In this document: positions 29,846 to 55,731 of the stretch, in pieces
Layout: the number at the start of each line of letters is the position of its first letter
Numbering within the stretch: the first letter of the stretch is position 1
Source of the DNA: an uncultured Rubripirellula sp.
Lineage (GTDB): Bacteria; Planctomycetota; Planctomycetia; Pirellulales; Pirellulaceae
DNA length: 64,000 nucleotides
NCBI GenBank assembly: GCA_938075415.1
Contig: CALJHC010000026.1
Span: 180,039-244,038, forward strand
Direction of reading: 5' to 3'
Notes under the pieces: model-generated
Database searches by the model: none
The model's input: the letters and a program-made list of their open reading frames with translations, nothing else
Told to the model about the DNA's origin: nothing
Program-made: the position numbers and the translations under genes

Positions 29846-31105
29846 TTAGATTTGAATTTTGGCATCACGAAGCATGATTTGAAGATCTTGCCATGCCGCT
29901 TTCTTGACATTGGGCTCACGAAGCAGGTAGGCGGGATGATAGGTCACCAAGACTTTGCTCTGATGGAACTTGTGAAGTTTTCCACGCAGTCGTCCCACCG
30001 AAAGTTTTGTTTGCAGAAGTTCATGAGCGCTGACGGCCCCAAGACAGACGATGTAATCAGGTCTGAGAATCGAAAACTGCGACTGATAAAAGCTCCTGCA
30101 ATTTTGGCGTTCGTCCAACTCGGGGTTGCGATTGTTGGGTGGTCGACATTTGACGGTATTAAGAATGTAGACGTCTTCCCGGCTAAATTTGCAGGCTTCG
30201 ATCATCTTGGTGAGCAGTTGGCCTGCTTTGCCCATGAACGGTCGGCCCAAACGATCCTCCTCCGCGCCTGGAGCTTCGCCAAAGAAAACAACTCTTGGTC
30301 GCACGTGGCCTTCTCCAAAAACGGTTGTGTTTCGGCAGCCCGATAGGACGGAGCACTTGGTGCATCCGGCCACACTTGCAGCAAGTCCGTCAAGTTGGAT
30401 TTTTCGTTGCTCGTCAGGCAAATCCGGACCCGGGTAAGGACCGGTGTCAGTCTGAACCGCGTCGACCGTTCTTAATCGACTTGGCGTTGGTGCTTGCCTG
30501 CTTGAGGGTGGAGGAACTGGCAATGGGTTCAGTTTGGAGGAGTCTGTTCTGGAGTCTTTATGGTTTGATGCGTTACTTGATCTCGCGGTGTCGAGCTGGC
30601 TTTTCTGTGCATGGTGTTGGTGGTCATCGGTGGCGGCGATTCCTTCGACTAAGGGTGAGTGGGTGGTCTCGAGCCAATTCTTGATTTTGGCAACCGATTG
30701 CTCGTTAGGTTGCGGCAGCGTGTGAATGCCGGATCGTTGGAAATGTTCTGCCAAGGCAGTCACTTGTGAGCGAATCATGGCTGCATCGGGAGGATCCGGT
30801 TCCATCTCTGTTGCTCGTTGTTCTTGCTGGGGTGGGGGGAGGTTCACGATTGGATGATTTTGAATTGCTTGGCGGCGCTGGATTGAACCGAAAGTACAAC
30901 TTACCGATTGGTGAGCTCGGCAGATACGTGTTGGTGAGAAAATGTCGGTTGCTGATGCTAACTTTGGTAATTTGCACGATGGTGCAGCGGCAGGGGGTCT
31001 TGAAGAATTGCAAAGGTCGCGACACAAGTTCTGGGCGACACTGGTCTCAATACGGGTAACCGGATGCCGCCTGCGAAGGAACCTGTGAAAAAATAGGCGG
31101 TCCAC
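29846..31105 (-). CDS. Uracil-DNA glycosylase family 4 (4Fe-4S type) with a long P/Q/S-rich N-terminal extension (start uncertain)
   Basis: C-terminal about 190 aa carry family-4 UDG motifs: CTKCSVLSGCRNTTVFGEG, GEAPGAEEDRLGRPFMGKAGQLL, NTVKCRPPNNRNP, YHPAYLLREP. The upstream 230 aa are low-complexity. Candidate internal starts are MEPDPPDAAM and MIRSQVTAL. Confidence 0.8.
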   Translation of the reverse strand: MDRLFFHRFLRRRHPVTRIETSVAQNLCRDLCNSSRPPAAAPSCKLPKLASATDIFSPTRICRAHQSVSCTFGSIQRRQAIQNHPIVNLPPPQQEQRATEMEPDPPDAAMIRSQVTALAEHFQRSGIHTLPQPNEQSVAKIKNWLETTHSPLVEGIAATDDHQHHAQKSQLDTARSSNASNHKDSRTDSSKLNPLPVPPPSSRQAPTPSRLRTVDAVQTDTGPYPGPDLPDEQRKIQLDGLAASVAGCTKCSVLSGCRNTTVFGEGHVRPRVVFFGEAPGAEEDRLGRPFMGKAGQLLTKMIEACKFSREDVYILNTVKCRPPNNRNPELDERQNCRSFYQSQFSILRPDYIVCLGAVSAHELLQTKLSVGRLRGKLHKFHQSKVLVTYHPAYLLREPNVKKAAWQDLQIMLRDAKIQI

Positions 31106-33041: not shown

Positions 33042-33926
33042 TTATGCATCATCCATGACGATACCTTTGTCGGTGATGGTGTACGGCACGATGGATTCAT
33101 CACAGACGCTTCCACGATGTTTAGCAACATGCAGTGCTCTTCCCATCTTGTTTCCCTCGCGAGTCTTTCCCATCAGGATGATCGTGTTTGCATTTGATAA
33201 TAAATCTCCACTTTCAATAGGCCGGGAGATTAGGTCATCAAGCATGACCTCGTGGCTTGTGTAGAGCAGCAAGCATGCGATTTTTCGATGGTCATACTGG
33301 TGTTGGTCAATGGTGTCCGCGTTGGAACGAAAGTCAGCGCGAAAGAGATCTCTCGCCACCCAGTCGTGCTCTTTGTGGAGGATCTGATGGTAGACATATT
33401 CGAATACCTCAAGTTGAATCGAATCGGCCGCCCGCTCCGTTGGCTCAATTCCATCAATGACGCATCGTCTGACCCCGTGAGCAAAGTTTCCGTAAAAGAA
33501 GTAAATAGTCTGATCAAGTTTCTTGGCCTGCTCATATTTCCATTCTCGCCACTGATCTGAGTTCATATCGTTGGCGGTAACTCGACGACCCCGATGTTGG
33601 AACAGATGCAGCGAATCTTTACGCGCATCACTGCGATCCCAGACTGATGGAGCGTGTATTTTTTGTTCCGATGGTTGTTGTTGGATTTTCCAGTCGAACA
33701 TGCGCTGCGCATAATCCGAATGATTCTGGGAATCACCCCGTGCAGTGAGGTCGAAAAAGATTCCCGTTTCGTTTTCTTGCCGGAGTCCATGATGTGCGAA
33801 CATCAGACCGAGTTGTGTCTTGCCAATTCCGGTGGCCCCCATCACAACCGTCAGTGTGCCAGGCAAAAGTCCACCCCCAAGTCGCGTGTCAAGTTCGGGT
33901 ATGCCTGTTTCAATTCGATCTTTCAC
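33042..33926 (-). CDS. Stand-alone RecA-superfamily ATPase, KaiC/RadA-like single domain
   Basis: 294 aa. [38 protein letters not shown] is the KaiC/RAD55-type opening with Walker A. Walker B-like hydrophobic-strand plus D/E region present. Single domain, not the double-domain clock KaiC. Confidence 0.7.
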
Positions 33927-36359: not shown

Positions 36360-37511
36360 TTGGTTGAAGTTGTCATGTCCGAACAGAAAAAAATTCGTTT
36401 CGTTTTGATTGGCGGTTTTCTCGGCGCTGGGAAAACGACGTTGATTGCTCAACTTGCCAAGCGATACATCGAAAGGGGACTTCGTGTCGGAATCATCACC
36501 AATGACCAAGCAAGTGATTTGGTCGATACGCAAAATTTGAGATCTCAGGGTTTTGCGGTGGGCGAGGTATCAGGGTCTTGCTTTTGCTGCAGTTTTAACG
36601 ATTTAGTTGATGCAGCAGACAATTTGACAGCGGATCAGATTCCGGATGTCTTGCTCGCTGAACCTGTCGGTAGTTGCACGGACCTCGTTGCTACCGTGAT
36701 CTTGCCGCTTCAAGAACGTTTTGGGGATCGTTTCGAGCTTGCGCCCTTTGGTGTTTTACTGAAGCCTTCCCACGCTTTGCGCCTATTGGCTGGGGGAAAT
36801 GGTTCAAGGCGAAGCGGCTTTTCTCCACAGGCTGAGTACATCTTTCACAAGCAGCTTGAGGAGGCCGATTACCTGTTGATCAGTCGAGCGGATCAATTAT
36901 CGGTGGACGAGGTTGAATTGCTTCGAACACAGCTTGGCAAGGTTGCTCCGGAGGTACCGGTCTTCGCGGTCAGTTCCGTGGATGGAACCGGTATTGAGAG
37001 CATTTTGGAATGCATCGAAACACCGTCCATCGCTGGACGAAGGTTGCTGGAGATTGATTATGACAAATACGCTGAGGGCGAGGCAGAATTAGGATGGGTT
37101 AACCTTTCTGCTCACCTTTGTGACACGAATTCAGAGCATGATCTCGATCAGCTTGCTAAAGATTTAGTGGGTGACCTCGCTGATCAAATTATTTCGAAAA
37201 GTGGTGTGATCGCTCACGTCAAAGTCTCCATTCTGGGTGGTGAATCTCAGGCTGTGGCTAACGTGGTTTCCAATGAAGGTTCCGTTGATGTTGGCCTTGC
37301 GGCGAATCGGATTGTGAACACAGACGTCCAATTAATTATTAACGCGAGAGTCGCGATGGATCCGGAAGCATTGCTGGTGATTTGCCAAGAAGCAGTGGAA
37401 AGGATCGGCCGCTCCAGGCAAGGTGAAATACGCAATCTGACATCGCACGCGTTGCGACCCGGGCGACCGGTTCCGACACATCGCGTTGAAGCGAAAGACT
37501 CGATGGAATAG
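36360..37511 (+). CDS. CobW/HypB/UreG (G3E) family GTPase, putative zinc metallochaperone
   Basis: P-loop LIGGFLGAGKTTL. The CxCC motif GSCFCCS characteristic of CobW/YjiA/ZigA-type G3E GTPases. C-terminal CobW_C-like region. Likely start at MSEQKK (36375). Confidence 0.8.
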   Translation: MVEVVMSEQKKIRFVLIGGFLGAGKTTLIAQLAKRYIERGLRVGIITNDQASDLVDTQNLRSQGFAVGEVSGSCFCCSFNDLVDAADNLTADQIPDVLLAEPVGSCTDLVATVILPLQERFGDRFELAPFGVLLKPSHALRLLAGGNGSRRSGFSPQAEYIFHKQLEEADYLLISRADQLSVDEVELLRTQLGKVAPEVPVFAVSSVDGTGIESILECIETPSIAGRRLLEIDYDKYAEGEAELGWVNLSAHLCDTNSEHDLDQLAKDLVGDLADQIISKSGVIAHVKVSILGGESQAVANVVSNEGSVDVGLAANRIVNTDVQLIINARVAMDPEALLVICQEAVERIGRSRQGEIRNLTSHALRPGRPVPTHRVEAKDSME

Positions 37512-41091: not shown

Positions 41092-41991
41092 ATGTTACCG
41101 AACAAGATCCTTGGTAAAACCGGTCTGCGAGTCACACAGCTTGGATACGGAAGCATGGGGCTGCGAGGACCGAAAACGTGGGGAGTCAGGGTGGTTGATG
41201 AGTCGCAGGCTGATCGGATGCTGAATCTTGTTTTGGATTCGGGTATCAATTTCATCGACACGTCACCAGATTACGGAATTTGCGAGCAGAGAATCGGGCG
41301 TTACCTTTCACATCGTCGCGATGAATTCATTTTGGCCACGAAATGCGGCTGCGTGTACACTCAGCATGAGAACCACTTGGAGATCGAGCATCATTGGGAC
41401 CCAGATGTGATTGAGGGCAACTTGAAGGCCAGTCTTGGGCGAATGAAGACGGATCACCTGGACCTGCTTCAATTTCACGGTGGTGATGCCGAGACACTGG
41501 TTAATGCTGGACTCATTGACCTGCTGAAAAGGTTTCAGGAAAAAGGGCTGATCCGTTTTCTGGGGGTGTCGAGTAAGCTTCCCAATCTTCGCGGGCTTAT
41601 TCAGTTGGGAGTATTTGACACGTTTCAGATTCCTTATTCTTGCTTGCAACCTGAGCATCATGAAATGATTGAATTAGCTGGACAGGGCGGTTCGGGGGTG
41701 ATCGTGCGAGGGGGCATCGCTCATGGAGGTCCCGAGGCCGTGATTCAAAGGCCGGTGCTGAACGACGTTTGGCAGGAAGCAAAACTTGATGAATTGCTTG
41801 ATGAGGGGATGACACGAGCTGCGTTGATCTTGCGTTACACCCTTTCCCATCCTCACTGCCACACCAGCATCGTGGGAACCTGCGACGAAAAGCATCTCGC
41901 GGAAAATCTAGAAGCGGCAACGGCAGGTCCACTGCCTGAATTGCTTTACCAGGAGGTCACCAAACGAATTCATCGGACCATTCATCACTGA
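41092..41991 (+). CDS. Aldo/keto reductase family oxidoreductase
   Basis: 299 aa. N-terminal LGKTGLRVTQLGYGSMGL, IDTSPDYG and the (alpha/beta)8 AKR pattern. Confidence 0.8.
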   Translation: MLPNKILGKTGLRVTQLGYGSMGLRGPKTWGVRVVDESQADRMLNLVLDSGINFIDTSPDYGICEQRIGRYLSHRRDEFILATKCGCVYTQHENHLEIEHHWDPDVIEGNLKASLGRMKTDHLDLLQFHGGDAETLVNAGLIDLLKRFQEKGLIRFLGVSSKLPNLRGLIQLGVFDTFQIPYSCLQPEHHEMIELAGQGGSGVIVRGGIAHGGPEAVIQRPVLNDVWQEAKLDELLDEGMTRAALILRYTLSHPHCHTSIVGTCDEKHLAENLEAATAGPLPELLYQEVTKRIHRTIHH

Positions 41992-42051
41992 GGTTTCGCT
42001 TAAGAGAGCTGACCTCGACATCTTGGAGGTTAGTTTGATCTTGGAGGTTGT

Positions 42052-45000
42052 TTATTTGACTGGTGGAGGGTCCACGTCGTTTGCATCAACAGGTGGCGAG
42101 TCAAAGAGGTCAGGTGAGTTCGTCCGTCCTTTTTTGAAGGCCTGCTCGACTTGCGTGTAGTTTTGCATCATTGCTTCGAGCTGCGTTTGCAGCTTATCGA
42201 GGTCCCGACCGTTATCAAGTGATTCGGAAAGGATCGGACGCAGCCACTCTTGCATCAGGTGGAATTGTCCCTTCACCAAATCAGCCAGAACGCGAGGTAC
42301 TTTGTGTTGAACAAGCACCCGTTGTTGTGGAGGATCGGTGACTTGTTGCATCGCAATCTTTTCAAGTTCTTTTGATGTCTGGTGAAGCGATTCGGTCAGT
42401 TGCTCTGCGGATTGACTGACGCTCTGGCGGAGTTGTTCGACGCGATCATCCATTCGTTGTTCGGTGTCATGGGTGCCCGTCGCAATCGCTCGCGAAATGA
42501 CTTGCCGAATCGACTCGAGACCGTCTCGCATCGAAGCAAGTTGCCGCATGAATTGCCCCGCCTGATCTGAGCTGTCCATGCCAGCCATTCGCACGTTTTC
42601 GACGAAGGCGTACTTGATGGCATCCCAACGCTCTTTTTCGTCAGCTGTGATGATGCCCAGTAATTCTTTGAACTTGAGGACGTTTGCTTCGTTGTCAGTC
42701 GTCAGTGTTTGTGCATCTTGTTCGTAGGTGCTGATAATCAGCAATTGCAACTCGGACTCGTTCATCACGGACGCGACACGCTCCGCGATGCGATTCATAT
42801 TTCGATAACTTCCCTGCAGCTTGAAGGGAGGTTCGGTTCGATAGTGATCTGCTTGAGCAGCACTTTGGATGTAAGCTCGATTCACCTTGAGGACAACATC
42901 ACGAACCCGAAGCAATTTTCGCATCACTTCAAACATTTCGCGCACTTGGTCCATCGAAAAGCGTGATTGAAGTTCGAGGCCGTCCATCGAATCTCGTTCC
43001 GCCGCTTGGATCACGCTTCGAGCATCTGCGGGCGACGCTGTTGCAAGCGGCGCGAGACTAGCGTTGCTGGACAGGCAGTTTTCCAGATAGCTCATTTCGA
43101 ACGCTTCGGCAGAATCACCGATGATCTCACCCAAATTATAGACATCCGCTCGATTGGAGAGCATGTCAGGGACTTGGAATCGATCACCACTTTCCGTGTA
43201 GGGGTTTCCGGCCATCACCACCGCAACGCGGCGGCCTCGTAAGTCAAAGGTCCGGGTGCGTCCATTTCGCACGCCTTCGATCTTGCGGGTGGCATCACAT
43301 AGTGAAATGAACTTTTGAAGGAATTCAGGATTGGTGTGCTGAATGTCATCAACATAAAGCATCACGTTGTCACCCATTTCGAGTGCCAGGTTAAGGCGTT
43401 CCACCTCTTCCCTGGCTGCCGCGTTTGGAGCTTCATCCGGGTCAAGTGATGTGACCGAGTGCCCGAGTGCAGGGCCGTTGATTTTCATAAACACGATGCC
43501 AAGCCGGTTGGCCACGTATTCCATCAGGGTCGTTTTTCCGTAGCCGGGCGGTGAAATCAGTAGTAGTAGGCCCATGCGGTCCGTTCGCTTGTTATCACCC
43601 GATGCGCCCATCTGCTTCGCTAGGTTGTCTCCGATCAGCGGTAGGTAGACTTCATCCAAAAGCCGGTTTCGAACAAAGCTGGTCAGTACCCGAGGTTTGA
43701 ATTCATCAAGTCGCATGGAATGCCTTGCAGAATCCACGAGCTCAGATTTTGTTTGGTGAAGTTGTCTGAATCTAGGAACGTCCTGAGATCGATAAGAGCC
43801 GACTCGTTTCAGGATTTCGTGATAGTGCAGCGCCAGATCACCACGATTAATCACCGAGTGATTGCCCGCAAGGGAGGTTAGGGTTCTGGCAATTTCAACG
43901 TCAATCGGCTTGGAGTTGTTGGCACCACCACGGCAAACAAGCCAAGCCAGTTCGTCCCGGTAACCAGCAGCAAGATCAATTGATGGGCCGGAATGGTGAT
44001 TGTTGAGGAAAGCATCGATCCAGTTTCTGGCGAGGATAAATGCACGTTTGGGGTCCGCTTCCGCCTTCAGTACTTTTGTGAGCAGTTTCTCTCGTTCCGT
44101 TTCAGGCACTGAGCCAATGAATTCATTGTAAAGGTTGGCTGCCCGCTTGCTGACAACGAGTCGTTTGGTTGTCTGAGTCAGGTAGTCGAAAAGGTAATCC
44201 GCAATTGCGTTCTGGTTAATCTCCTTTTCAAACAGGGGTCGCCATTGATCGCCGTCATTGGCAGCGAGTTCCGTCAGCCGGCTGCGAAATTCAACTGCGG
44301 GTTTGGCGTTGGGATAAGCTTTGGCGAGTTTGGCGAAACCGCCGATCCAGTCCGTCATGACCTTGCGATTCTTGGCGTCAAGAATCGAATTGAACCAAAG
44401 GTTTCCGGCACTTCGCACCGAGGGTGGATGCTTTAGCATTCCAATGGAATGATGAATTTCCAGCAGGGTTGTTAATATCTTGAACGCGTCTTCGTCATGG
44501 ACACCCTTGGCATAGCCTTCCTCAAAACGACCACCCATTTGCTTTTGAACCCATCCGAGCGAGATCTCAGTGGAGGGTTGTTTCACCTCGGGACTGGTCA
44601 ATTGCTGGAAAAGTTCAACCGCAAGGTACTCACCGCGATAGACCGATGTGTTTTCGCTAACAAGTTCTTGAGTCCATAGATCGCGAGCGTCTGTGAGGTG
44701 CTGATTCTCGAGGGGTTCAAAAAACTGTGTCCCGGTGAGGTGCAGGCAGATTTCGCCCTCGCGAAGGACGGTGGTGAGGTCGAGCGCTTGGGTGTTGACC
44801 GCAAAACGATGCTTGCCAAGTCGAATTAGATCTCCGCCATCCTCATAAAGTTCTTGGCGATCTTTCAGTTGTCGAGTCGCATCCTCTCGAATGGTTTTCA
44901 CCCGACTTTGCAAGTCTTCAACTCGGACTGCATCCTCGAGTTGCTCGAGTTGCGCCATGATGTCTCTGACTTTTTCAACCATCAAGTCGCTGGCGAAGTA

Positions 45001-47355
45001 GGCTGCGATCTCGTCGGTCGTCTCCATTTTTCCGACGCGAGATTCGATCCCTTTGAGAATCCGGTTGGCGGCGGCGGTCAGTGATTCAGCGCGGCGATTG
45101 CGTTTTTCAATCAGGGCGACTTTTCGCGATTCAAACGCTGCGTAGACTTCTTCTCGACGTTGGGCAAGTTGGACAACGAAATCATCGAATTCCGCAAATC
45201 GTCCCTCAAGTTCCTCAATTTGAACCATGAGTTTGGTCAGGTAGTCATCGCAGCGTTGTGGTGAGTCGGATACATCGAGGTAGCCTGAGGTTGTCTGCTC
45301 AAGCAATTTTAATTGTGATGCAAATTCTGCCTGTCCTTCAACGCTGAGCAGTTCAGTGGTGCGAGCCTTCAGGGAACTTCGAACCCGATTCAATGACGCA
45401 AAGACGTCACCAATGGAATCAATGATGCCGGTTCGTTTGTTGGTGTCCTCAATTTTCAGATTACTAACCGTCTCAGTCAGTAACTCCAGATCTTGCCCAC
45501 TCTGTTCAATTGCTTTTTCAAGCTTTTTGGCTGCTGATACTGACTCGACCTCGGCAATGCTTTCAGAAATGGACTGAACCTTCTCTGAGTAAGGCTGCAA
45601 AGCAGTTGGATTCAGGAGAAACTCAACACATCGATGACTGAGACGATCAGAATGTTCGGCGGTTGACGTTTCTAGCGTCTCAATCAACTCCTCATCTGCG
45701 TATTTAAGTTCTCTGAGACCAATTGCGTGTCCACGCTGCTCTCGAAGTTGCGCGAGCGAGGAGACAAAATCACCGATAGCCTCGAAGCGACTTCGCTCTA
45801 TGGTTTTCAGAAGTTTACCAATGGTTTTCTGAACTTCATTGGTTCGCTGTTCGGTGTCACGCCGTAGACGAACCACTTTTTCGAATTCTTCAACCGCGGC
45901 GCTGGATGCGTCCCGAATACGGCTGAGAGGTTCAGAAAGCTTTTCGATTTCCTCTTTGTCAATCCAGAAGTAACTATCCAAAAGGTCACTGGTTTTACGC
46001 ACAAGATCGAGGTAAAGATCTTCGTAACTATCGTCCTTGTCGATAAGCTGAATGACTTCATTGCATTCCGCCATTCCGCCGACGATTTCTTTGTTGCCTA
46101 TCTTGAAGAGAAACGAGTCGGTTTGGTTATCGGAGACGTAATCAGAGCCGGTGAAAGGGGTTTGCCATATTTGAATAGCGTGATGCTTCTGAGGGTCATC
46201 TTGCCCCCGAAAACAGACCATTTCACCTCCCTCGAAAAACGTCTGTCCGTGGCAGACCAAGGGTGCGTCAACGGTTTGCCGGATTAGGTTGTAGCGAAGC
46301 TGGACATAGGTTCCCGATTCGGGGTTGTAGAACAGGTAGAGATAGTCCTCGCCGTTGGGTGAAGCGATGGTGCGTTGGTATCGCATGTCGCTCAGACCGT
46401 GTTCAAACCGTTTGAATTCGCCCGTTTGAAGGTAATATCCACCGGGGAAAATCAATCCATGATCGTTTGGCAGCATGACGCAAGCGTTCTCAATATCATC
46501 AAGACGCATTGCCTGCTGGATTTTTCCATTGAAAATCAAGTAACGGAAATCTGATTCCAGATAGGGTCGGATTTTCATCAGGACGAGATTGCCAACGATC
46601 GCATAATGGATCTCGGCATCGTCGAGTTGTTGGTCTGAGTTGTCGACCGACTCGGCATAGATCCCTTCGCCCGTTTCGGTATTGTTTTCAACCTTGATGG
46701 TGAGGTCACCGCCGACAGTTTCAACAAAGACTCGATCTTCGATCGAGATGTGTGGGTGTGCACCGTAATGGTGTTGATCACGGGTGGTCTTATTCCATCT
46801 GAATTCATGCTGAGCTGGATCGCGAACTTCATGTTCACTTCGGTTGTCGATGTATTCGATGGAATCGACGCCCATCCGCCATTTGAATGATTTGATGTCT
46901 TTGCTGGTTTTTCCAACTTGGAAAACCATGTGAAGCATCGGTCCGATACGAAAGAATCTTGAAAAGCGAGTGTTTTTGTAGAAGCGGTAAAGCTCGTTGA
47001 AGTCACTGGCAAATTGCTGATCACCGATTAGATCAAGCGGTAGATGGTGGAACTGACCTTCGTCGAAGCGATAGGTGGAAAAAACATCTGAGAGGTTGAT
47101 TTCGGTTTTCAGCCCAAATTGGACGTTGTACCCAAACAGGAATTGGTCACCGACAGAAACAATGTCACGCGGTACGCAGTTATGCTCGGTGTTGACTCGC
47201 TCGGTCGCGACCAGAGACGTATCGATGTTCCCGAAAACCTCAGCCCGGGATTCATTCAGTCGGCCGAGTCGGGCGCGCAGATCTTTCGCGGCCTCTCGCA
47301 ACCGATTGCGTAAGACTTCGTAGGTTCCAGCCGCGAGCGTTTTTGATTCCGTCAT
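42052..47355 (-). CDS. Giant (1767 aa) cytoplasmic coiled-coil protein with an AAA+ (AAA_5/MoxR/dynein-like) ATPase core; function unknown
   Basis: One uninterrupted ORF. Walker A LLLLISPPGYGKTTLMEYVANRLG (encoded around 43500-43560). Walker B NVMLYVDDIQH. Sensor-1-like VAVVMAGNP. Sensor-2/arginine region SNRADVYNL. Two long heptad-rich E/L/K/R segments lie either side of the ATPase. A beta-rich N-terminal region of about 450 aa. No signal peptide or TM. Confidence 0.8.
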   Translation of the reverse strand: MTESKTLAAGTYEVLRNRLREAAKDLRARLGRLNESRAEVFGNIDTSLVATERVNTEHNCVPRDIVSVGDQFLFGYNVQFGLKTEINLSDVFSTYRFDEGQFHHLPLDLIGDQQFASDFNELYRFYKNTRFSRFFRIGPMLHMVFQVGKTSKDIKSFKWRMGVDSIEYIDNRSEHEVRDPAQHEFRWNKTTRDQHHYGAHPHISIEDRVFVETVGGDLTIKVENNTETGEGIYAESVDNSDQQLDDAEIHYAIVGNLVLMKIRPYLESDFRYLIFNGKIQQAMRLDDIENACVMLPNDHGLIFPGGYYLQTGEFKRFEHGLSDMRYQRTIASPNGEDYLYLFYNPESGTYVQLRYNLIRQTVDAPLVCHGQTFFEGGEMVCFRGQDDPQKHHAIQIWQTPFTGSDYVSDNQTDSFLFKIGNKEIVGGMAECNEVIQLIDKDDSYEDLYLDLVRKTSDLLDSYFWIDKEEIEKLSEPLSRIRDASSAAVEEFEKVVRLRRDTEQRTNEVQKTIGKLLKTIERSRFEAIGDFVSSLAQLREQRGHAIGLRELKYADEELIETLETSTAEHSDRLSHRCVEFLLNPTALQPYSEKVQSISESIAEVESVSAAKKLEKAIEQSGQDLELLTETVSNLKIEDTNKRTGIIDSIGDVFASLNRVRSSLKARTTELLSVEGQAEFASQLKLLEQTTSGYLDVSDSPQRCDDYLTKLMVQIEELEGRFAEFDDFVVQLAQRREEVYAAFESRKVALIEKRNRRAESLTAAANRILKGIESRVGKMETTDEIAAYFASDLMVEKVRDIMAQLEQLEDAVRVEDLQSRVKTIREDATRQLKDRQELYEDGGDLIRLGKHRFAVNTQALDLTTVLREGEICLHLTGTQFFEPLENQHLTDARDLWTQELVSENTSVYRGEYLAVELFQQLTSPEVKQPSTEISLGWVQKQMGGRFEEGYAKGVHDEDAFKILTTLLEIHHSIGMLKHPPSVRSAGNLWFNSILDAKNRKVMTDWIGGFAKLAKAYPNAKPAVEFRSRLTELAANDGDQWRPLFEKEINQNAIADYLFDYLTQTTKRLVVSKRAANLYNEFIGSVPETEREKLLTKVLKAEADPKRAFILARNWIDAFLNNHHSGPSIDLAAGYRDELAWLVCRGGANNSKPIDVEIARTLTSLAGNHSVINRGDLALHYHEILKRVGSYRSQDVPRFRQLHQTKSELVDSARHSMRLDEFKPRVLTSFVRNRLLDEVYLPLIGDNLAKQMGASGDNKRTDRMGLLLLISPPGYGKTTLMEYVANRLGIVFMKINGPALGHSVTSLDPDEAPNAAAREEVERLNLALEMGDNVMLYVDDIQHTNPEFLQKFISLCDATRKIEGVRNGRTRTFDLRGRRVAVVMAGNPYTESGDRFQVPDMLSNRADVYNLGEIIGDSAEAFEMSYLENCLSSNASLAPLATASPADARSVIQAAERDSMDGLELQSRFSMDQVREMFEVMRKLLRVRDVVLKVNRAYIQSAAQADHYRTEPPFKLQGSYRNMNRIAERVASVMNESELQLLIISTYEQDAQTLTTDNEANVLKFKELLGIITADEKERWDAIKYAFVENVRMAGMDSSDQAGQFMRQLASMRDGLESIRQVISRAIATGTHDTEQRMDDRVEQLRQSVSQSAEQLTESLHQTSKELEKIAMQQVTDPPQQRVLVQHKVPRVLADLVKGQFHLMQEWLRPILSESLDNGRDLDKLQTQLEAMMQNYTQVEQAFKKGRTNSPDLFDSPPVDANDVDPPPVK

Positions 47356-47500
47356 GATGTCCGTTTGTTCGGCGGCAACCGCTTGAGAGCAGTTGAAGTC
47401 ATGCCACTACCATTGCTTCACTTGCCGTGGAAGCGATGGTTGTCTGAGCACCATGGCGTCCGACGGCAGAATCGTTAGCAATATTTCGAGTCAAGTCTTC

Positions 47501-47536
47501 GAAGTTCAAGTCGAAGTTCAACTTGAAATTCAGCCT
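47501..47536. repeat. 12-bp tandem direct repeat, 3 copies (GAAGTTCAAGTC / GAAGTTCAACTT / GAAATTCAGCCT)
   Basis: Read directly. It lies immediately 3' of the flotillin stop codon and about 145 bp upstream of the start of the giant ATPase gene. Contains a TTCGAA/TTCAAG-CTTGAA local palindrome. Confidence 0.75.
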
Positions 47537-49674
47537 CACTGGGTTGGCTTTGCTTTCGCTGCGGGCAGGCTTCCGCCTTGCGTCAGCAGTTTCCCTACCC
47601 TCTGGTCGGCAACGTTGGCGGTTCCCGCAATGCTCAGCAAGCTGGCAAGTTGACTACGGATCTCGTTGGTGTCAGCGAGTCCGAGTAGCTTCGCAATCAA
47701 CGCCGCGATGGAGAGGTCTTTCACTCCATCGGTATCAAGGTTGAACTGGGTGATGAGCTCATTGAGTTGGTCTTTGAAGTACTCAGCATTACCATCGAAG
47801 AACGTTTCTTTGATATCGGTAGCGACTTTACTGTTGTAAACAAATCGGTCGATGGCTTTACCGCCTTTGACAGCGGAGGTGATCTGGTCAAAGAATTCAC
47901 CGTCACCGCCAACGATATCGATGCGAGCCGCTTTGAGTGCATCCCCAACCACGCCAGCTTGGCTTTCTGCGATCCCTCGTTGGGCGTCAATTGCAGCGAT
48001 TTCAACTTCTTTTTCCTTGTCCAGCTGCAGCTTGAACTCTTCGTGATCTTTTCCAACGCCATCGAGTTTCTTCATGGCTTCTGCTTTCTCGGTGATACCA
48101 TCCGCTTCGCTTCGGTATTTCTCTCGAGAGACATTTGCTTCGGCCAAACCCTGTTTTTGGACGGCATCGGCTTTGGCTTCGATACCTTTCGCTTCGGCAA
48201 CGGCTTTTTTCTGCAGGACAGACGCCTCGGCGGTACCTTCTTTTTCAAGGCTGGTGGCTTTGGCTTCCTGCACGGTCGCTTCGGCTAGGCCTTCAGCGGC
48301 TGACTTTGCCGCATCAGCTTCGGCGAGCATTTTTGTTGCAGCCGTATCTTTTTCTGCGGCGTCGCGTCTGGCTTCCGCTTCGATGCGAATTTTTTCGGCC
48401 AGTAATTCGCTGGCATCTTTTTCAGCCTGGGCAAGCTTTGTCTGGCGAATCAGTTCTTCTTCGGCACGCATCTGGGCCGCGGTGACCTGCACCTTCTTGA
48501 GACGATCGGCAGCAGCAATTTCTTCGGTGTCTTTGATCCGCTCCTGTTCTTCAACCACGGCGCGTTCAACAGCAACTCTCTCGCGAATCACTTCCTGAAT
48601 GTTTCGCTTTTCAACTTCGATCGCTTTTTCTTTCTCGACATCAGCGACACCGACGACACGCAGCCGTTCCGTCATCTCAAGATCCCGATCTCGCTCAACT
48701 CGTTGGACTTCGACGGCATCGGTTTTTTCCTTGTTACGCATCGCGACAAGGACTTGGCGTGATTTGTTTTCCTCAGCAACACCGAGTTCTTCCTCGGTGA
48801 CGATTCTTGCTCTTTCGGATTCCAGTCGTTGCTCTTCCTCGACCTTCTTCGCGGCAGCCCGCTCGCGGGCCGAAATCTCGGTGATTTCGCGTTGCTGCTT
48901 TTCTACCGCTTCTACCCGTTGCCGTTCCAACGCGAGGATGGTTTCCTCCGCTTCGACATCCTGTTTTTTGAGTGTCTTCTCTTTATCACGCGTGAATTGG
49001 TTCTCTTTTACCTTTTCCGTCGCGGTTAACTCAGTGATTTTCTTGATTCCTTCCGCGTCCAGGATGTTCGAGGGACTCAGCATCTCAAGTGGGGTTTGCT
49101 CGAGGTAGTCGATCGCGGCATCGTCAAGCCGATAACCATTGAGATCCGTACCGATGACTTTTAGTATTTCTACTTTGAATTTGTCTCGTTGGTCATAAAG
49201 ATCAACAAAGTCAAATTGCTTACCAACGGTTTTCAACGCTTCGCTAAATTTTGCATCAAAAAGTTCTCTGAGTGTTTCAATTTCGCTACAGCGTCTTGCT
49301 CCGATCGACTGCGCAACCTCTTTCATCTCTTCCTGCGTGTTATCAACGCGGATGAAAAAGGCCACTTTGATGTCGGCTCGAATATTGTCTCGACAGATGA
49401 GACCTTCACTTCCCTGTCGGCTGATTTCAAAGCTCTTCAGCGTCAGGTCCATGAATTCATATCGATGGAAGAGAGGTACAATGAATTTGCCCCCTGCGGT
49501 GGTCACGTCCAGACCACCTAAACCTGATTTCACAATCGCGCGATCAGGTCCAACCACGATGAAGTATTTTCGGAAGGTTAGTAAGGCTGAAAAAACGGCG
49601 AAAGCGATCAGGTAGATCACAATCATCCATCCGCTAGTCCAGTCAAATGCTGCGAGGGGAATCGAGAGGGTCAC
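47536..49674 (-). CDS. Flotillin family (SPFH/band-7 domain) membrane protein with an unusually long E/A/K/R coiled-coil region
   Basis: 712 aa. N-terminal TM helix (GWMIVIYLIAFAVFSALLTF). SPFH domain (VVGPDRAIVKSGLGG..., YqiK/FloT-like). About 330 aa of EA-repeat coiled coil. Flotillin-type C-terminal domain. + strand Ser/Ala-rich ORFs inside are antisense artefacts. Confidence 0.85.
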   Translation of the reverse strand: MTLSIPLAAFDWTSGWMIVIYLIAFAVFSALLTFRKYFIVVGPDRAIVKSGLGGLDVTTAGGKFIVPLFHRYEFMDLTLKSFEISRQGSEGLICRDNIRADIKVAFFIRVDNTQEEMKEVAQSIGARRCSEIETLRELFDAKFSEALKTVGKQFDFVDLYDQRDKFKVEILKVIGTDLNGYRLDDAAIDYLEQTPLEMLSPSNILDAEGIKKITELTATEKVKENQFTRDKEKTLKKQDVEAEETILALERQRVEAVEKQQREITEISARERAAAKKVEEEQRLESERARIVTEEELGVAEENKSRQVLVAMRNKEKTDAVEVQRVERDRDLEMTERLRVVGVADVEKEKAIEVEKRNIQEVIRERVAVERAVVEEQERIKDTEEIAAADRLKKVQVTAAQMRAEEELIRQTKLAQAEKDASELLAEKIRIEAEARRDAAEKDTAATKMLAEADAAKSAAEGLAEATVQEAKATSLEKEGTAEASVLQKKAVAEAKGIEAKADAVQKQGLAEANVSREKYRSEADGITEKAEAMKKLDGVGKDHEEFKLQLDKEKEVEIAAIDAQRGIAESQAGVVGDALKAARIDIVGGDGEFFDQITSAVKGGKAIDRFVYNSKVATDIKETFFDGNAEYFKDQLNELITQFNLDTDGVKDLSIAALIAKLLGLADTNEIRSQLASLLSIAGTANVADQRVGKLLTQGGSLPAAKAKPTQ

Positions 49675-50351
49675 GCCGAAGGCTCCGTTGAATGTTGAGT
49701 GACTTTGTAGATGCGTTGTTCGGGATCAAATCCGATGATGATGGCCTGTTCACCTTTGGTGATGATAGAACCATCGGTTTGGACGTTCAGCAGTAAGGGT
49801 GCTGCGTTGGTGCGGTATTTGGCTTGTCCGAATTTATCAGTTGCCTCGGAGGTCGAAATCTCACATTTCTCGCCGATCAAAGTTTCATGGTTGTAAATGG
49901 GGGGTGGGACAAAGTATCGCAGTAAGGGTTGGGTGGTGATCTTGGTCAATCCCACAGCCAATACCACGTTCCGGACCATCAAAATTAGGCTCGGTGCCCA
50001 ATCTGGGGCGTACCTTTGACTATCGAATTGATGCCAGAGTCCGTATGAAATTGCCCAAAACATGACCGTAAAAATACCACCCCACAGGATAATCGGGAGT
50101 CGGCTGAAGTTCGTCCAGCGAACTGTCATTCCACCAATTCCCTGAAGAAAATCCATATCGAATGGGATTATTTGGGTTAGGTCTGGCCCGAAGGAGGGGT
50201 CTGCATCCATTTCAGGTAGATCCAAGCCGAGATCCAGTAGGCCCAGCATGCCCAAAAGGGTGTAGACGACCAGAAGTGCTGCGAGGATGGATGCTGGCCA
50301 AACGGGACCAACCAGCATTCGTTCAGCAATTTCCAAGAAAGGTTCTGGCAT
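49671..50351 (-). CDS. NfeD/YqiJ-like membrane protein (flotillin partner; C-terminal OB-fold)
   Basis: Multi-TM N-terminal half (VWPASILAALLVVYTLLGMLGLLDLGL; ILWGGIFTVMFWAISYGLW; LILMVRNVVLAVGL). C-terminal beta-rich soluble region (GSIITKGEQAIIIGFD). Its stop overlaps the flotillin start by 4 bp. Start set at MPEPFLEIAE (ATG complement 50349-50351). The track extends to 50444. Confidence 0.65.
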   Translation of the reverse strand: MPEPFLEIAERMLVGPVWPASILAALLVVYTLLGMLGLLDLGLDLPEMDADPSFGPDLTQIIPFDMDFLQGIGGMTVRWTNFSRLPIILWGGIFTVMFWAISYGLWHQFDSQRYAPDWAPSLILMVRNVVLAVGLTKITTQPLLRYFVPPPIYNHETLIGEKCEISTSEATDKFGQAKYRTNAAPLLLNVQTDGSIITKGEQAIIIGFDPEQRIYKVTQHSTEPSA

Positions 50352-50536
50352 CTCGGTAACTCCTAATTGATCAAACAGGGGACCGCCTATGTTGTGTTCG
50401 TCTGCGATTCTGAGAAACGATTTGCAGAATGCTGCCCGCTGCAAAGTGGGCGACCCGGTTCGATGAATCCGGATCAGTCGTTGTTCTGTTCAACCTTACG
50501 TGAAAAGATTGTTCCATTAACTTGCTGAACGGCCTA

Positions 50537-52321
50537 TTAGGGCTGCTTGGCATCGGATTCTGAGTTCCACCACCATCGCTGTTGAAGTAAGGGTCTTGCC
50601 GATTGGTGGTCCACTTGCGTTTGAATCAGAGGATACTGAACTAATTGCTCTGGCAGCGTTTGCCCGGAGTCTACTGAGACTCCGCCACTTGCGAGCAGAA
50701 CGTGGTGTCTTTTGGATCCGTGTCGAACCGAATGCATGGTTCCAATCGAAGCCACTTGCCGAGGTGTCTTGAGAAGAGCCGGTGATTCCGTAGCACCATT
50801 GGTTAATATTTCGACGATTCTGGCGTGCGCAGGAGAGTCTCCGAAACGTTTGATCACTTCGGCGAGGGATGCCGCTTCATAGATCGACTCAAGGGCTCCA
50901 TAAATTGGGTAGTCTTGTCGAATAGAAACCCAATTCTGGTTAAACGATTGAACGAATGCTTTTGTTCTGGGGTCCTGCGTTATCGCACCCCGTTTGCCGC
51001 TGAGAAGAGCCCGTTCGTTCTCACTGCTAAGGCGAATCGGGGTCCCGGAGAGTTGGAAATATGTCTTCTCCTGATTGGCCCTCAGTTGTCGAGCTTCGGC
51101 GGTGAACCAGAGTCGCAGCAGTAGCTCTTGAGGTGGTCCTTGCGCAATCGCCTGATCGATTGCGTCGAGATAGTTCATCGCCGAGAGAGGCATTGGGTGT
51201 TGGCCAAGGGCAAGCTTTTTCATGTGTCGGTCCGCCTCGACCATCACATAACCAATTGGAAGATCACCTGGGATACCAAAGACCTCCACTCGCTGCATTC
51301 CTAATGCCTCCGTAAGAGCACCTGAAGCCTCTTGGATTGGGATCTGTTGCTGTTGTATCCGCTGTCCCACTTCGGCCGCCCGCTGCAAACCTTCCCTGGT
51401 TGGATCGATTGTGCATCCGTAAGGTTGTTGGAAGAATGCCGACCAAAGATTAGCTCGCAGGAAGTCCAAGCTTAGTGTGCTCTTGCCTGATTCTCGGTCT
51501 TGATACCAACCGTCCGTCTGGTCAATGCCTCCGACGGTGCCAGCGATCACAATGTCATTGGGTTCAAGAAAGATGTGTTGAATCGAAGATAATCCGGCGA
51601 GATTTCGCATCGCTTCGGAGGGAGTTAAACCTTGTTGCTGCCATCGATTCCATCTTGAGGAGAGCCTGCCGAGCGAAACAAATCGTAATCTGCTCGGGTC
51701 TTTCCATGCATTGGAACCTGACTTGCCGCGAGCCGAATTCCGCTTAGGTTCTGCTTCTTTTCGTATTGAAACATGTGTTGCTGATAGGGGCTGGCAATCA
51801 ATGATTGTGCCGGAGGCATCCACGTAAACTCCTTGCGGATAGGACGCCATGGTGCTGGGGCCGCCAAGCGATTCCCATGTATCCGGGACAACGGTCGTTT
51901 GGATCAGGTCAATCAGCATTTGGAAGTCTGCAAAGGAGCCGCCGCCGCTGGCTTGATCCATTAAATCGGCGTCGAATTGCCCAGAAGGTGCCGAGGGAAG
52001 ATAGGCATCATTTGAACCAAGGGAAGAACCTGTTGAAAAAGTTTCCAACGACAACCGTTGGTGCTGATTCATACGTCTTGTTGAAGCATCAGATGGATTT
52101 TCGGCTCTCTCAGCTGCTTGCCTTGCCATTGCAAATTCGCCGGCGTCACGGTGCGAGGTTTCTCTGCTGCCATCGTTTCCCGAGTCGCCACCGTCCTGAC
52201 CGTAAAGAATTACCGGTTCGGGAAAGCAAACCACCGGTAGCACGTTCAGGAAAGAACAAAAGAACAACACCCTTACGACCACATCGATCAGTGCTGGCGG
52301 TTGAATTACCGATTGCATCAT
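50537..52321 (-). CDS. Secreted DUF1598-like protein (paralog 1)
   Basis: 594 aa. N-terminal hydrophobic segment. Shares blocks with the ORF at 53350-54747: IQHIFLEPNDIVIAGTVGG vs IQYVFFYPDTKDIVIAGPAEG, DRHMKKLALG vs DYRMKLVGIG, and the C-terminal WWW motif (QQRWWWN vs GQWWWD). I recall a Planctomycete-restricted family (DUF1598) with this pattern, but the family name is from memory. Confidence 0.65.
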   Translation of the reverse strand: MMQSVIQPPALIDVVVRVLFFCSFLNVLPVVCFPEPVILYGQDGGDSGNDGSRETSHRDAGEFAMARQAAERAENPSDASTRRMNQHQRLSLETFSTGSSLGSNDAYLPSAPSGQFDADLMDQASGGGSFADFQMLIDLIQTTVVPDTWESLGGPSTMASYPQGVYVDASGTIIDCQPLSATHVSIRKEAEPKRNSARGKSGSNAWKDPSRLRFVSLGRLSSRWNRWQQQGLTPSEAMRNLAGLSSIQHIFLEPNDIVIAGTVGGIDQTDGWYQDRESGKSTLSLDFLRANLWSAFFQQPYGCTIDPTREGLQRAAEVGQRIQQQQIPIQEASGALTEALGMQRVEVFGIPGDLPIGYVMVEADRHMKKLALGQHPMPLSAMNYLDAIDQAIAQGPPQELLLRLWFTAEARQLRANQEKTYFQLSGTPIRLSSENERALLSGKRGAITQDPRTKAFVQSFNQNWVSIRQDYPIYGALESIYEAASLAEVIKRFGDSPAHARIVEILTNGATESPALLKTPRQVASIGTMHSVRHGSKRHHVLLASGGVSVDSGQTLPEQLVQYPLIQTQVDHQSARPLLQQRWWWNSESDAKQP

Positions 52322-53349: not shown

Positions 53350-54747
53350 TCAATCCCACCACCATTGTCCGGGTTCGAGACTTGATGGACCGGCAAGTTC
53401 CTTGGCCGCTTTGTTGGCTCCATCGGTATCAACTTCAACTCGACCCGATTCAAGTGCGATACGTGGTTCGACACGCACGCCGCCGCCGAGTGGTGTCATC
53501 AAAGTGTTACCCCTCCAGATTGCATTGACCGCAGTCTCGACTTGTTCAGGGGCTGTGTAGGTTTCAACGGAAACCTTTGACTCGTCCAGCAGGACCGGCA
53601 TGTTCCATTCGAGTTGACCATAAAAGTCTTGCTGCTGAATGTAGGCTGCTGCGATCGAGACGTCGATAAGTTGCCGAAGTTCGGCATAGATTCGAACGCG
53701 TTTCTGAATTGCGGTGAACTTCTTGGTGAAATCGGCACAAAACGCTTGGCTGGCTCGATTGGCTCGCCCGCTTGCGGCACGACGTCCTTCAACGACTCGC
53801 TCGTTGGCGCCAACGAGTTGAACACCACGCTCTTTGATTCGCATGGCTGTTCCATCATCGTTCACGGCGATACCGTCGTAATTGGGTTGGAAATACCAGC
53901 GTTCCATGGCGTTGGCAGCGACCGCACTTGGATTGGCTCGCTCAACATAACTTTTCACAGGAACAGGCAGTCGTTCCAATCCAATGCCGACTAACTTCAT
54001 GCGATAGTCCGCTTCAACGAGCACTCGAGCAAAGTGGGTGGAGTTGGGGATTCCCTTGAAGGTGACCGTTTGCAAACCAAGATTTTCCTTCATTCCTCGA
54101 GCAATTCGAGCCGCGTCGCTTGGGCGAGCAACCCGGCGAGCTTGCTGCATGTACCGATTCATCTGCTGCAAGCCTTCGGCCGTTGGATCAATGGAGACAC
54201 TGATCACCGAGGTTGGTTTCGTATTTGGAGCGAAGGCCCGAAGTGATGTCACCAAATCCTCGAGGAGCAGCGTGGGCTGACCCGATTCCATTCCGATCAA
54301 ACGCTCTGTTTGGTCGGCAAAGAACCCTTCGGCGGGACCAGCGATCACGATGTCTTTGGTGTCTGGATAGAAGAAGACGTACTGAATCGAGGTCAGGCCA
54401 GCAACTGCCAGGAGGTCATCACTGAGCTCCACACCGGCCTCTCTCTGAGAAACGATTGCTGCCTCAAGACGATTCAGGGAAACCTTACGTAGCTTCGAGG
54501 CTTGCATCACATTTCGATCGCCCTGAGCGCGGGCGGCTGCGAAACGCTGCTGAGCCAGCCTTGGATCGAATTGTTTGACACGCAGAACGCCCGCAGCATC
54601 GACATCAATACCGGCGATCGGGCTTCCGAGAAAGTTGGTGTCACCACCACCACCACCACCGCCGCCCTGTGCGAAACTTTCGGACAGCGGGGCGAATGCG
54701 ACGACGACGAGAGTCGAAAATGCGATGAAGCGTTGCAACGTGTTCAT
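53350..54747 (-). CDS. Secreted DUF1598-like protein (paralog 2)
   Basis: Start at MNTLQRFIAFSTLVVVAFAPLSESFAQGGGGGGGG (signal peptide followed by Gly8). Paralogous blocks with 50537-52321 (see above). The track extends to 54774. Confidence 0.65.
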   Translation of the reverse strand: MNTLQRFIAFSTLVVVAFAPLSESFAQGGGGGGGGDTNFLGSPIAGIDVDAAGVLRVKQFDPRLAQQRFAAARAQGDRNVMQASKLRKVSLNRLEAAIVSQREAGVELSDDLLAVAGLTSIQYVFFYPDTKDIVIAGPAEGFFADQTERLIGMESGQPTLLLEDLVTSLRAFAPNTKPTSVISVSIDPTAEGLQQMNRYMQQARRVARPSDAARIARGMKENLGLQTVTFKGIPNSTHFARVLVEADYRMKLVGIGLERLPVPVKSYVERANPSAVAANAMERWYFQPNYDGIAVNDDGTAMRIKERGVQLVGANERVVEGRRAASGRANRASQAFCADFTKKFTAIQKRVRIYAELRQLIDVSIAAAYIQQQDFYGQLEWNMPVLLDESKVSVETYTAPEQVETAVNAIWRGNTLMTPLGGGVRVEPRIALESGRVEVDTDGANKAAKELAGPSSLEPGQWWWD

Positions 54748-55731
54748 ATAATTGCCGCGGGTGGCTTGATTCAACTGGAAGCCGTCGCTGAGTCAATCTG
54801 CAACGTCGGCCTGACATCTAATGAAAATAATTCGACCTGTTGGTCACTACAACAAATTAGTTTCCCCCAACACGTGGCGAAACTCAAATTTGTCACATTG
54901 AGCAAATCTTTCCGATTAGGCAGTTTTAATCCTAGCATCTGGCTAATCAATCAGCTGCCCAACTAAGCCAATTTGTCTCTGAATCGGACGAGATGTTAAC
55001 GATTATCGGCAATTTTGGCTGGAAGATCAGAGGTAATTGCCGGTTTTGCTTGGTGAGCGAGTCCTAGGGACGGGAAAGGACAGCTGTGTGGTTTAGGCGA
55101 CTTGGGGCACTGCCCCGTGTGCAATGTCGCTGCCCCGTGTTATTCATCGGCACTGCCCAGTGTTGTTCATTGGCAGGGTTCTGCATTACGAATGTCAGAA
55201 GGCTTGCAATCAGCCTCGGTCCGTCTGCGAGTCATGGGCCGCCCGAGGGAGGGGGTGGGCAGCTGATCTTTTCTCGGTGAAGGCATCGGTAATGTTATTC
55301 AAGTGGAGTGATTTCCAACGATGACATTGCATGAACTTTTCGATAGTGGATCATCGACGTCACTGCCCTTTTTCCGCCTTTTGCGTCCTGAACCTTAACA
55401 GGTCTCTGCAGTTGACGGTCGCTTGAGCCACCTCGGATTTTACCGATGATGACGAGAAGATCTTCGGGTGCAATGGTTTGGGTTGGGGCTAAATCTTCGC
55501 CGGACCTTGCTTGGTTTTTGGTCGGTCGGATTTGGCTTAGCAAAGCTGGTCAGACCCGGAATTCGGCGGTTTAGTCGGGTTTTTCCTGATAATAGCTGTA
55601 TGCGGCACCTTGTATCGGGCAATCAGGCTGGTGCTTGAGATTCGCCCCCTGCCTCGTATCTGGTTATCAGCCTAGAATCCAAGATGTTGTTACTCGCGAA
55701 TGAAACCCTGATTGGATAGGAAGACAAATCG

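Follow-up and report, generated by a model that had tools for sequence, protein, structure and literature searches.

A giant MoxR/AAA_5-class ATPase encoded beside a long flotillin in an uncultured Rubripirellula and in distant bacterial lineages

The operons yqiJ-yqiK of Escherichia coli and yuaF-floT of Bacillus subtilis encode a small membrane protein together with a flotillin, and comparative genomics has placed such pairs within a wider, PspA-associated operon (Ravi et al. 2024, mSystems, PMC11237479), of which abbreviated forms, comprising the flotillin, YqiJ/YuaF and sometimes an ATPase, are widespread. In that work ATP-dependent membrane remodelling was proposed, Vps4 and ESCRT-III were invoked as a functional analogy, in which an AAA+ ATPase recycles a membrane-bound polymer, and genes for HKD phospholipase D were reported in some proteobacterial versions of the operon. 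A membrane scaffold of the SPFH type is likewise genetically coupled to an AAA+ ATPase in HflK/C-FtsH and in other SPFH/AAA+ pairs. The function of bacterial flotillins and the turnover of their assemblies are unsettled, and a giant ATPase that is fixed beside one flotillin subtype provides a concrete handle on both. Such an ATPase is the subject of this analysis. It is encoded on the minus strand of a stretch of 64,000 nucleotides (hereafter the window) from an uncultured Rubripirellula sp. of the Planctomycetota (contig CALJHC010000026.1, positions 180,039 to 244,038), as the last of three co-directional genes that form a cassette:

49671..50351, minus strand: first gene, a YqiJ/NfeD-like small membrane protein of 226 amino acids (aa) with likely start M32 (orthologue alignment, hhalign)
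47536..49674, minus strand: long flotillin/SPFH protein of 712 aa, with an N-terminal transmembrane segment and a C-terminal module (Pfam Band_7, BLASTP)
42052..47355, minus strand: whole open reading frame (ORF) of the ATPase, a DUF3686-DUF7902-AAA+ protein of 1767 aa with the database name 'DNA repair ATPase'

The reading favoured here, to which a probability of roughly 0.55 is assigned, is that the third gene encodes a soluble remodelling ATPase of the MoxR/AAA_5 class, acting during envelope stress on the inner-membrane scaffolds formed by flotillin and, where it is present, PspA. An earlier note on this DNA, made by a model from the letters alone, was largely right in what it observed of the ATPase, and missed the decisive context, namely a conserved operon of YqiJ-like protein, flotillin and ATPase that is already in the literature (PMC11237479).

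Both genes upstream of the ATPase in the cassette have homologues in the E. coli and B. subtilis operons. The flotillin, which carries one N-terminal hydrophobic segment, matches E. coli YqiK in BLASTP with E=2e-47, and the profile of the small protein, in which two to three hydrophobic segments are found, matches E. coli YqiJ (hhalign probability 95%, E=3.6e-8), Pfam matches to NfeD and YqiJ_N among its relatives being sub-threshold only. The mechanical ORF of the small protein spans 49671-50444 on the minus strand (257 aa) and starts with TTG; the orthologue alignment suggests the ATG at 50351 instead. Its gene and the flotillin gene share 4 nucleotides, where the one stops and the other starts, and the ATPase gene begins 180 nucleotides downstream of the flotillin gene; a promoter and terminator scan of positions 41800-50800 gave nothing above the expectation from shuffling and is uninformative on co-transcription either way. 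Both partner proteins possess transmembrane segments, whereas a hydrophobicity scan of the giant ATPase found no segment of transmembrane strength. The ATPase-linked flotillins have in common a conserved C-terminal module (HEE[FY]..., IDIVGGDGxFFD and GK..D; here approximately aa 575-712, window positions 47536-47950, minus strand). The yqiJ-yqiK operon has no third ATPase gene, and YqiK lacks this module, in a comparison that covers one ATPase-less flotillin only. From its pattern of conservation, the module may be considered a candidate docking site for the ATPase.

The linkage of the ATPase to flotillin is conserved across phyla and near-obligate. In Planctomycetota, the gene immediately upstream of the ATPase encodes a flotillin in 73 of the 73 loci that include upstream DNA (seven further loci, whose sequence begins within the ATPase gene or only shortly ahead of it, are not informative), and the cassette is present in Pirellulales-type genomes at identities as low as 51%. 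Other lineages show the same in nine of ten loci, from Alteromonadaceae, Myxococcales, Pseudomonas fluorescens (plasmid pQBR103), Streptomyces, Hymenobacter, Vibrio campbellii, Deinococcus grandis, Proteus mirabilis and one further genome, and the encoded proteins follow each other in the size order of ~200 aa, ~650-730 aa and ~1620-1950 aa. A single-protein scan of genome contigs gave Planctomycetota only; the other phyla were reached via a profile search, a plasmid collection and contig look-ups. The pairing is found in at least six named phyla, including the tractable P. mirabilis, V. campbellii, Streptomyces and a Pseudomonas plasmid. E. coli has no ATPase gene, and blastn of the Proteus DNA against E. 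coli complete genomes gave no match. The PLSDB records that carry the cassette in P. mirabilis (NZ_OL790811.1, 4.08 Mb) and V. campbellii (NZ_CP050465.1, 2.06 Mb) are filed as plasmids and are sized like a chromosome and a second chromosome, respectively.

Two plasmid loci display a richer context. On a plasmid of Hymenobacter sp. DG25B (NZ_CP010056.1, 126782-145960), genes for a Tir-type chaperone, PspA/IM30, a DUF1449 (YqiJ-like) protein, a flotillin-like protein of 722 aa and the ATPase follow one another, and on pQBR103 of P. fluorescens SBW25 (NC_009444.1, 87115-106260) the cassette comes after DUF2491, DUF350, DUF1190 and glutathionylspermidine-synthase-family genes that resemble yjfK-L-M-C of E. 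coli. These contexts are in agreement with the operon of PMC11237479, the window cassette being its abbreviated form and the Hymenobacter locus its full form with Tir and PspA. A gene for a LexA-family regulator lies divergently upstream in the Hymenobacter locus; in pQBR103 an MvaT/MvaU gene is located immediately downstream of the cassette and a phospholipase D family gene ~9 kb downstream.

The minus-strand reading frame 42052-47355 is uninterrupted. Because a public protein collection already contains an identical protein, and 80 related loci encode full-length orthologues that are 51-81% identical to it, the ORF represents a genuine gene under selection and no pseudogene. Its product is typical of a widespread giant ATPase family that is catalogued in Pfam and experimentally unstudied: PF12458 (DUF3686) matches aa 25-463 with E=8e-193 and 641 bits against a gathering score of 25, and PF25472 (DUF7902) matches aa 585-667 with 92.6 bits against 26. 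The family comprises more than 5800 relatives, or ~400 representatives at E<1e-30 after clustering at 50%, and DUF3686/DUF7902 relatives share 38-81% identity with the window protein over their whole length. An alignment of 73 representatives with a mutual identity of at most 50% reveals a common architecture, in which an N-terminal beta domain and a helical rod precede a single C-terminal AAA+ module with SPPGYGKT, DDIQH and GNP; the 'DNA repair ATPase' proteins so described have lengths of 1600-1950 aa, the same domain order and an equally invariant QGSYR. The window protein differs from them only in its C-terminal ~160 aa, which are helical with a Pro-rich end and, judged by the alignment, specific to the Pirellulaceae clade. 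Two AlphaFold2 models built from 43-sequence alignments, covering aa 1-1000 and aa 830-1767 (mean predicted local distance difference test, pLDDT, 81.9 and 78.7, respectively), contributed to the following division of the protein:

47233..47325, minus strand: N-terminal long helix with heptad signal, aa 11-41 (AlphaFold2; periodicity z=3.0 in aa 22-63)
45967..47283, minus strand: DUF3686 (PF12458), aa 25-463, all-beta, with ~28 strands in aa 47-398 (Pfam, AlphaFold2)
44851..46113, minus strand: rod of ~12 helices (14-58 residues each), aa 415-835, resembling spectrin repeats
45355..45603, minus strand: DUF7902 (PF25472), aa 585-667, within the rod (Pfam E=1.7e-26)
44713..44829, minus strand: small five-stranded beta domain, aa 843-881 (AlphaFold2; conservation)
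43681..44703, minus strand: globular helical domain and linker helix, aa 885-1225 (AlphaFold2 pLDDT mostly >85)
43036..43680, minus strand: AAA+ alpha/beta core, aa 1226-1440
43531..43554, minus strand: Walker A SPPGYGKT, aa 1268-1275, without variation among the 73 representatives
43336..43359, minus strand: Walker B LYVDDIQH, aa 1333-1340, with DD-I-Q-H invariant or nearly so
43246..43281, minus strand: beta hairpin predicted at the pre-sensor-1 position, aa 1359-1370, with the basic DLRGRR after it (AlphaFold2 strands; assigned by motif order)
43150..43212, minus strand: sensor 1 AGNP (aa 1382-1385) to invariant R1402 (PDMLxNRAD), a candidate arginine finger
42556..43035, minus strand: helices of the AAA+ lid and those after it, aa 1441-1600, carrying the invariant QGSYRN, whose R1518 is a candidate sensor 2 (conservation, AlphaFold2)
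42055..42555, minus strand: C-terminal tail confined to the clade, aa 1601-1767, with low-confidence long helices ahead of a Pro-rich end (conservation, AlphaFold2)

The ATPase module is best assigned to the MoxR/AAA_5 class of AAA+ proteins. An alpha-beta-alpha P-loop core, a helical lid, Walker A and B, sensor 1, an arginine after sensor 1 and an arginine in the lid are all present, and AlphaFold2 together with Foldseek places the AAA+ fold at approximately aa 1260-1600, where it had been expected around 1280-1450. Foldseek against the PDB returned AAA+ proteins only; the lowest E-values (~2e-4) were those of RuvB, and the top target-normalised TM-scores (0.5-0.6) were those of the MoxR-class proteins NorQ and CbbQ. 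The best structural matches are also of the MoxR class, with 224-237 of 254-267 residues aligned, the comparison figures being 14.8 for CbbQ (237 of 267 residues) and 13.7 for NorQ, followed by 11.8 for the dynein motor domain, ~11 for ClpB/ClpA, 10.5 for midasin and 10.3 for McrB. Pfam AAA_5 matches over the whole domain in 17 of 17 diverse ATPase regions of the family (all E<=0.1, best 1.6e-8), while the alignments of PF00004 and RuvB_N are confined to the surroundings of the P-loop, and sequence searches of the PDB with the whole protein or with an ATPase-region profile recovered the P-loop of Rix7, p97 and RuvB only. The AAA_5-like core proposed in the earlier note was a good call. With CbbQ, NorQ and RavA (MoxR class; AAA_5/AAA_3) the window protein has in common the sensor-1 GNP, the order P-x-x-L-x-x-R and the predicted pre-sensor-1 hairpin; it differs in its Asp-Asp Walker B, where theirs reads hhhhDE, in being ~6x larger, with ~1225 aa of N-terminal domains, in its sub-threshold AAA_5 score, and in having a flotillin as partner and no VWA/MIDAS partner gene, a VWA domain being absent among the cassette neighbours here and in the loci of relatives. 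In contrast to FtsH in the HflK/C-FtsH pair, it has neither a protease domain nor a transmembrane anchor and is MoxR-like rather than a classical AAA protein, and the flotillin beside it is of the YqiK type.

Invariant or nearly so in the 73 representatives are SPPGYGKT, DD-I-Q-H, G-N-P, R1402 and R1518, and since these relatives are distant, the ATPase is under selection. Walker A reads SPPGYGKTT (aa 1268-1276) and not GPPGYGKTT, as had been given; the LYVDDIQH and AGNP motifs were correctly recognised, as were the Arg-rich DLRGRRVAVV, which spans aa 1371-1380, and the C-terminal end, DSPPVDANDVDPPPVK. The strands of the hairpin lie at 530-534 and 537-541 (model numbering), between alpha3 and beta4. 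Invariance across distant relatives marks the Asp-Asp pair of Walker B as a fixed family trait and not as decay. The same signature (hhhDDIQ) characterises DnaA, a slow, switch-type AAA+ protein, which makes it reasonable to suppose, as the earlier note did, that the Asp-Asp pair may slow hydrolysis.

The regions outside the ATPase module are partly those that had been anticipated. The N-terminus is beta-rich, as noted, with pLDDT ~85-90 over aa 47-398; the accompanying statement that it holds no recognisable motif does not stand, as it is DUF3686. The literature labels this domain a beta-propeller, and ~28 strands would fit seven four-stranded blades, but the label was not reproduced, as hhalign self-comparison detected no repeat and a profile search of the PDB gave no match. 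Instead of a coiled coil over aa 470-960, there are indeed helices in aa 415-835, but with patchy heptad periodicity and with spectrin and plakin repeats as structural matches, and they are succeeded by the beta domain at aa 843-881, in which G847 and F851 are invariant in every alignment and G875 and T876 invariant or nearly so, and by globular structure from aa 885, poorly conserved in aa 990-1170. Of a second coiled coil placed at 1480-1700, long helices at ~1600-1745 remain (pLDDT ~60, unconserved), aa 1468-1590 being part of the conserved AAA+ lid and post-lid region. The Pro-rich tail exists and is absent or variable in relatives: aa 1601-1767 are gappy and unconserved across the 73 representatives, with pLDDT 40-60.

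These observations can be combined into a mechanism for the favoured reading. The flotillin would be anchored in the inner membrane through its N-terminal hydrophobic segment and, together with its NfeD/YqiJ-type partner, would form large ring or cage oligomers, as other SPFH proteins do. The soluble giant protein would oligomerise via its single MoxR/AAA_5-class module, probably into a hexamer, and the all-beta DUF3686 domains, held out on spectrin-like rods, would bind the target, most likely the C-terminal module of the long flotillins or, alternatively, a client, for instance PspA/IM30. ATP binding and hydrolysis, the latter probably slow in view of the Asp-Asp pair, could then drive the assembly, remodelling or disassembly of the flotillin/PspA scaffold under envelope stress. 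What the analysis shows is the domain anatomy, the AAA+ fold and class, the invariance of the motifs and the conservation of the operon across phyla; hexamer formation, binding to the flotillin module, the sense in which the scaffold is remodelled and the kinetic consequence of the Asp-Asp pair are inferred. The intact ORF, the high conservation of the family, the invariant catalytic motifs, the upstream flotillin across lineages and a flotillin C-terminal module that is found in ATPase-linked flotillins and not in YqiK, whose genome is ATPase-less, all speak for this interpretation.

A number of points weigh against it. The AAA_5 score of the window protein itself, 17.3 bits at full length and 20.8 for the isolated region, falls below the gathering score of 22, and the fold class of DUF3686, hence also its mode of binding, is unassigned. 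There is no PspA gene within the window, and one Thermoanaerobaculia locus, on a short contig of 9273 bases, has the ATPase without an upstream flotillin. Furthermore, a literature search on DUF3686, PF12458 and 'DNA repair ATPase' in conjunction with flotillin/SPFH found no experimental study of the family, and searches on YqiJ, YqiK and ATPase, or on flotillin and MoxR, gave nothing relevant beyond the PSP comparative-genomics paper (PMC11237479); what is already known is that the family is in Pfam and that the operon was described in 2024. In the Thermoanaerobaculia locus, a YceI gene on the opposite strand occupies the place of the flotillin, and a ResIII/DEAD helicase gene comes after the ATPase.

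A more specific and distinctly tentative version of the proposal is that the protein is a machine dedicated to the ATP-driven assembly and disassembly of flotillin cages, in which a hexameric MoxR-class ring would carry six spectrin-like arms, whose DUF3686 domains, with a beta fold that has no solved relative, would dock on the flotillin C-terminal module. If this were true, flotillin microdomains would gain an energy-dependent turnover cycle, analogous to that of Vps4 with ESCRT-III. PspA and Vipp1 are ESCRT-III relatives. The parallel has its limits, in that Vps4 is a classical-clade AAA protein with an MIT domain, whereas the window ATPase is MoxR-like, its proposed target binder is DUF3686, and PspA is present in the operon only sometimes.

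The operon evidence that supports scaffold remodelling could equally be claimed by a quality-control unfoldase or chaperone for membrane-protein clients in flotillin microdomains, similar to FtsH-HflK/C without the protease, in which the clients, and not the scaffold, would be the substrate. SPFH cages that enclose AAA proteases are established (cited in PMC13086221), and the beta2-alpha2 segment at the pore-loop position, NGPALGHxVTSLDP, is almost invariant. That segment, however, offers no aromatic residue at the pore-loop position, MoxR-class ATPases are generally remodellers or insertases and not threading unfoldases, and the conserved genes of the cassette include neither a protease nor an adaptor, so that this explanation appears unlikely.

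A role in anti-phage defence or conflict, with flotillin and ATPase together sensing or executing abortive infection at membrane level, is quite improbable. It would account for the presence of some copies on large plasmids, for the position of the pQBR103 copy near a phospholipase D family gene and MvaT, and for the HKD phospholipase D genes that accompany some of the proteobacterial operons (PMC11237479). Large coiled-coil ATPases are, moreover, common in defence systems. On the other hand, PADLOC models run against the three cassette proteins gave only a P-loop-limited IetA match (E=0.001), and a search of a phage collection found no homologues. Housekeeping genes surround the cassette in the window, purM, gnd, der, rpsA and one for a Mur ligase among them, and the retention of the cassette across Pirellulales-type genomes also argues against a role in defence.

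Flotillin-independent action as a dynein- or SMC-like mechanochemical motor or cytoskeletal element, in line with the SMC/dynamin/dynein framing of the earlier note, is very improbable. The length of the helical rod and the large size of the protein are what recommend it. However, the near-obligate linkage to flotillin speaks against independence, and the architecture is that of a different machine: 1767 aa contain one P-loop within one AAA+ domain, where dynein and midasin concatenate six AAA modules. Walker A and Walker B are 60 residues apart in a contiguous domain on the C-terminal side, with no hinge and no ABC head split by an antiparallel coiled coil as in SMC/Rad50, and the rod is spectrin-repeat-like and not a two-stranded antiparallel stalk. 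Dynamin is not supported either, as the protein has no GTPase motif of the G1-G4 set and gave no Pfam match to dynamin or to a GTPase.

Least credible of all is the database view of an ATPase for DNA repair, such as a DNA motor akin to RuvB or SMC, which draws on the NCBI and Pfam names ('DNA repair ATPase', 'ATPase involved in DNA repair'), on the Foldseek E-values of RuvB and on weak RuvB_N and NCBIfam RuvB matches over the P-loop, a likeness that extends over ~45 residues and scores 22 bits against a cut-off of 282 and 20.7 against 299 (NCBIfam/TIGR), far short of the score set for a RuvB equivalog, while the Pfam scan detected no DNA-binding domain in the ATPase, the conserved neighbours encode membrane proteins and not repair proteins, and the literature search gave no paper that backs the name. 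Remodelling of membrane flotillin assemblies is more likely than DNA repair because the gene almost always adjoins a flotillin gene, and the name, carried by thousands of proteins and unsupported by domains, neighbours or literature, is probably misleading. The value of the protein lies chiefly in a lead on bacterial flotillin function and in the correction of a propagated misannotation.

Elsewhere in the window, two paralogous DUF1598 proteins of 594 and 474 aa are encoded just upstream of the cassette (50537-52321 and 53350-54774, both minus strand); such genes adjoin the cassette in only ~5 of 80 related loci and are probably not part of it. A CobW/HypB/UreG-type GTPase gene (36360-37511, plus strand) lies a few kb from the cassette, and a KaiC-like ATPase is encoded at 33042-33926 (minus strand), the match covering its first ~96 aa only; neither has an evident link to the cassette. 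At 29846-31105 (minus strand), a protein of 419 aa carries a uracil-DNA glycosylase superfamily domain in aa 263-409 only, its N-terminal ~260 aa having no Pfam match. Finally, the gene at 5569-8403 (plus strand) encodes a protein of 944 aa with DUF11, CARDB and transglutaminase-C Ig-like repeats, which is probably a cell-surface protein.

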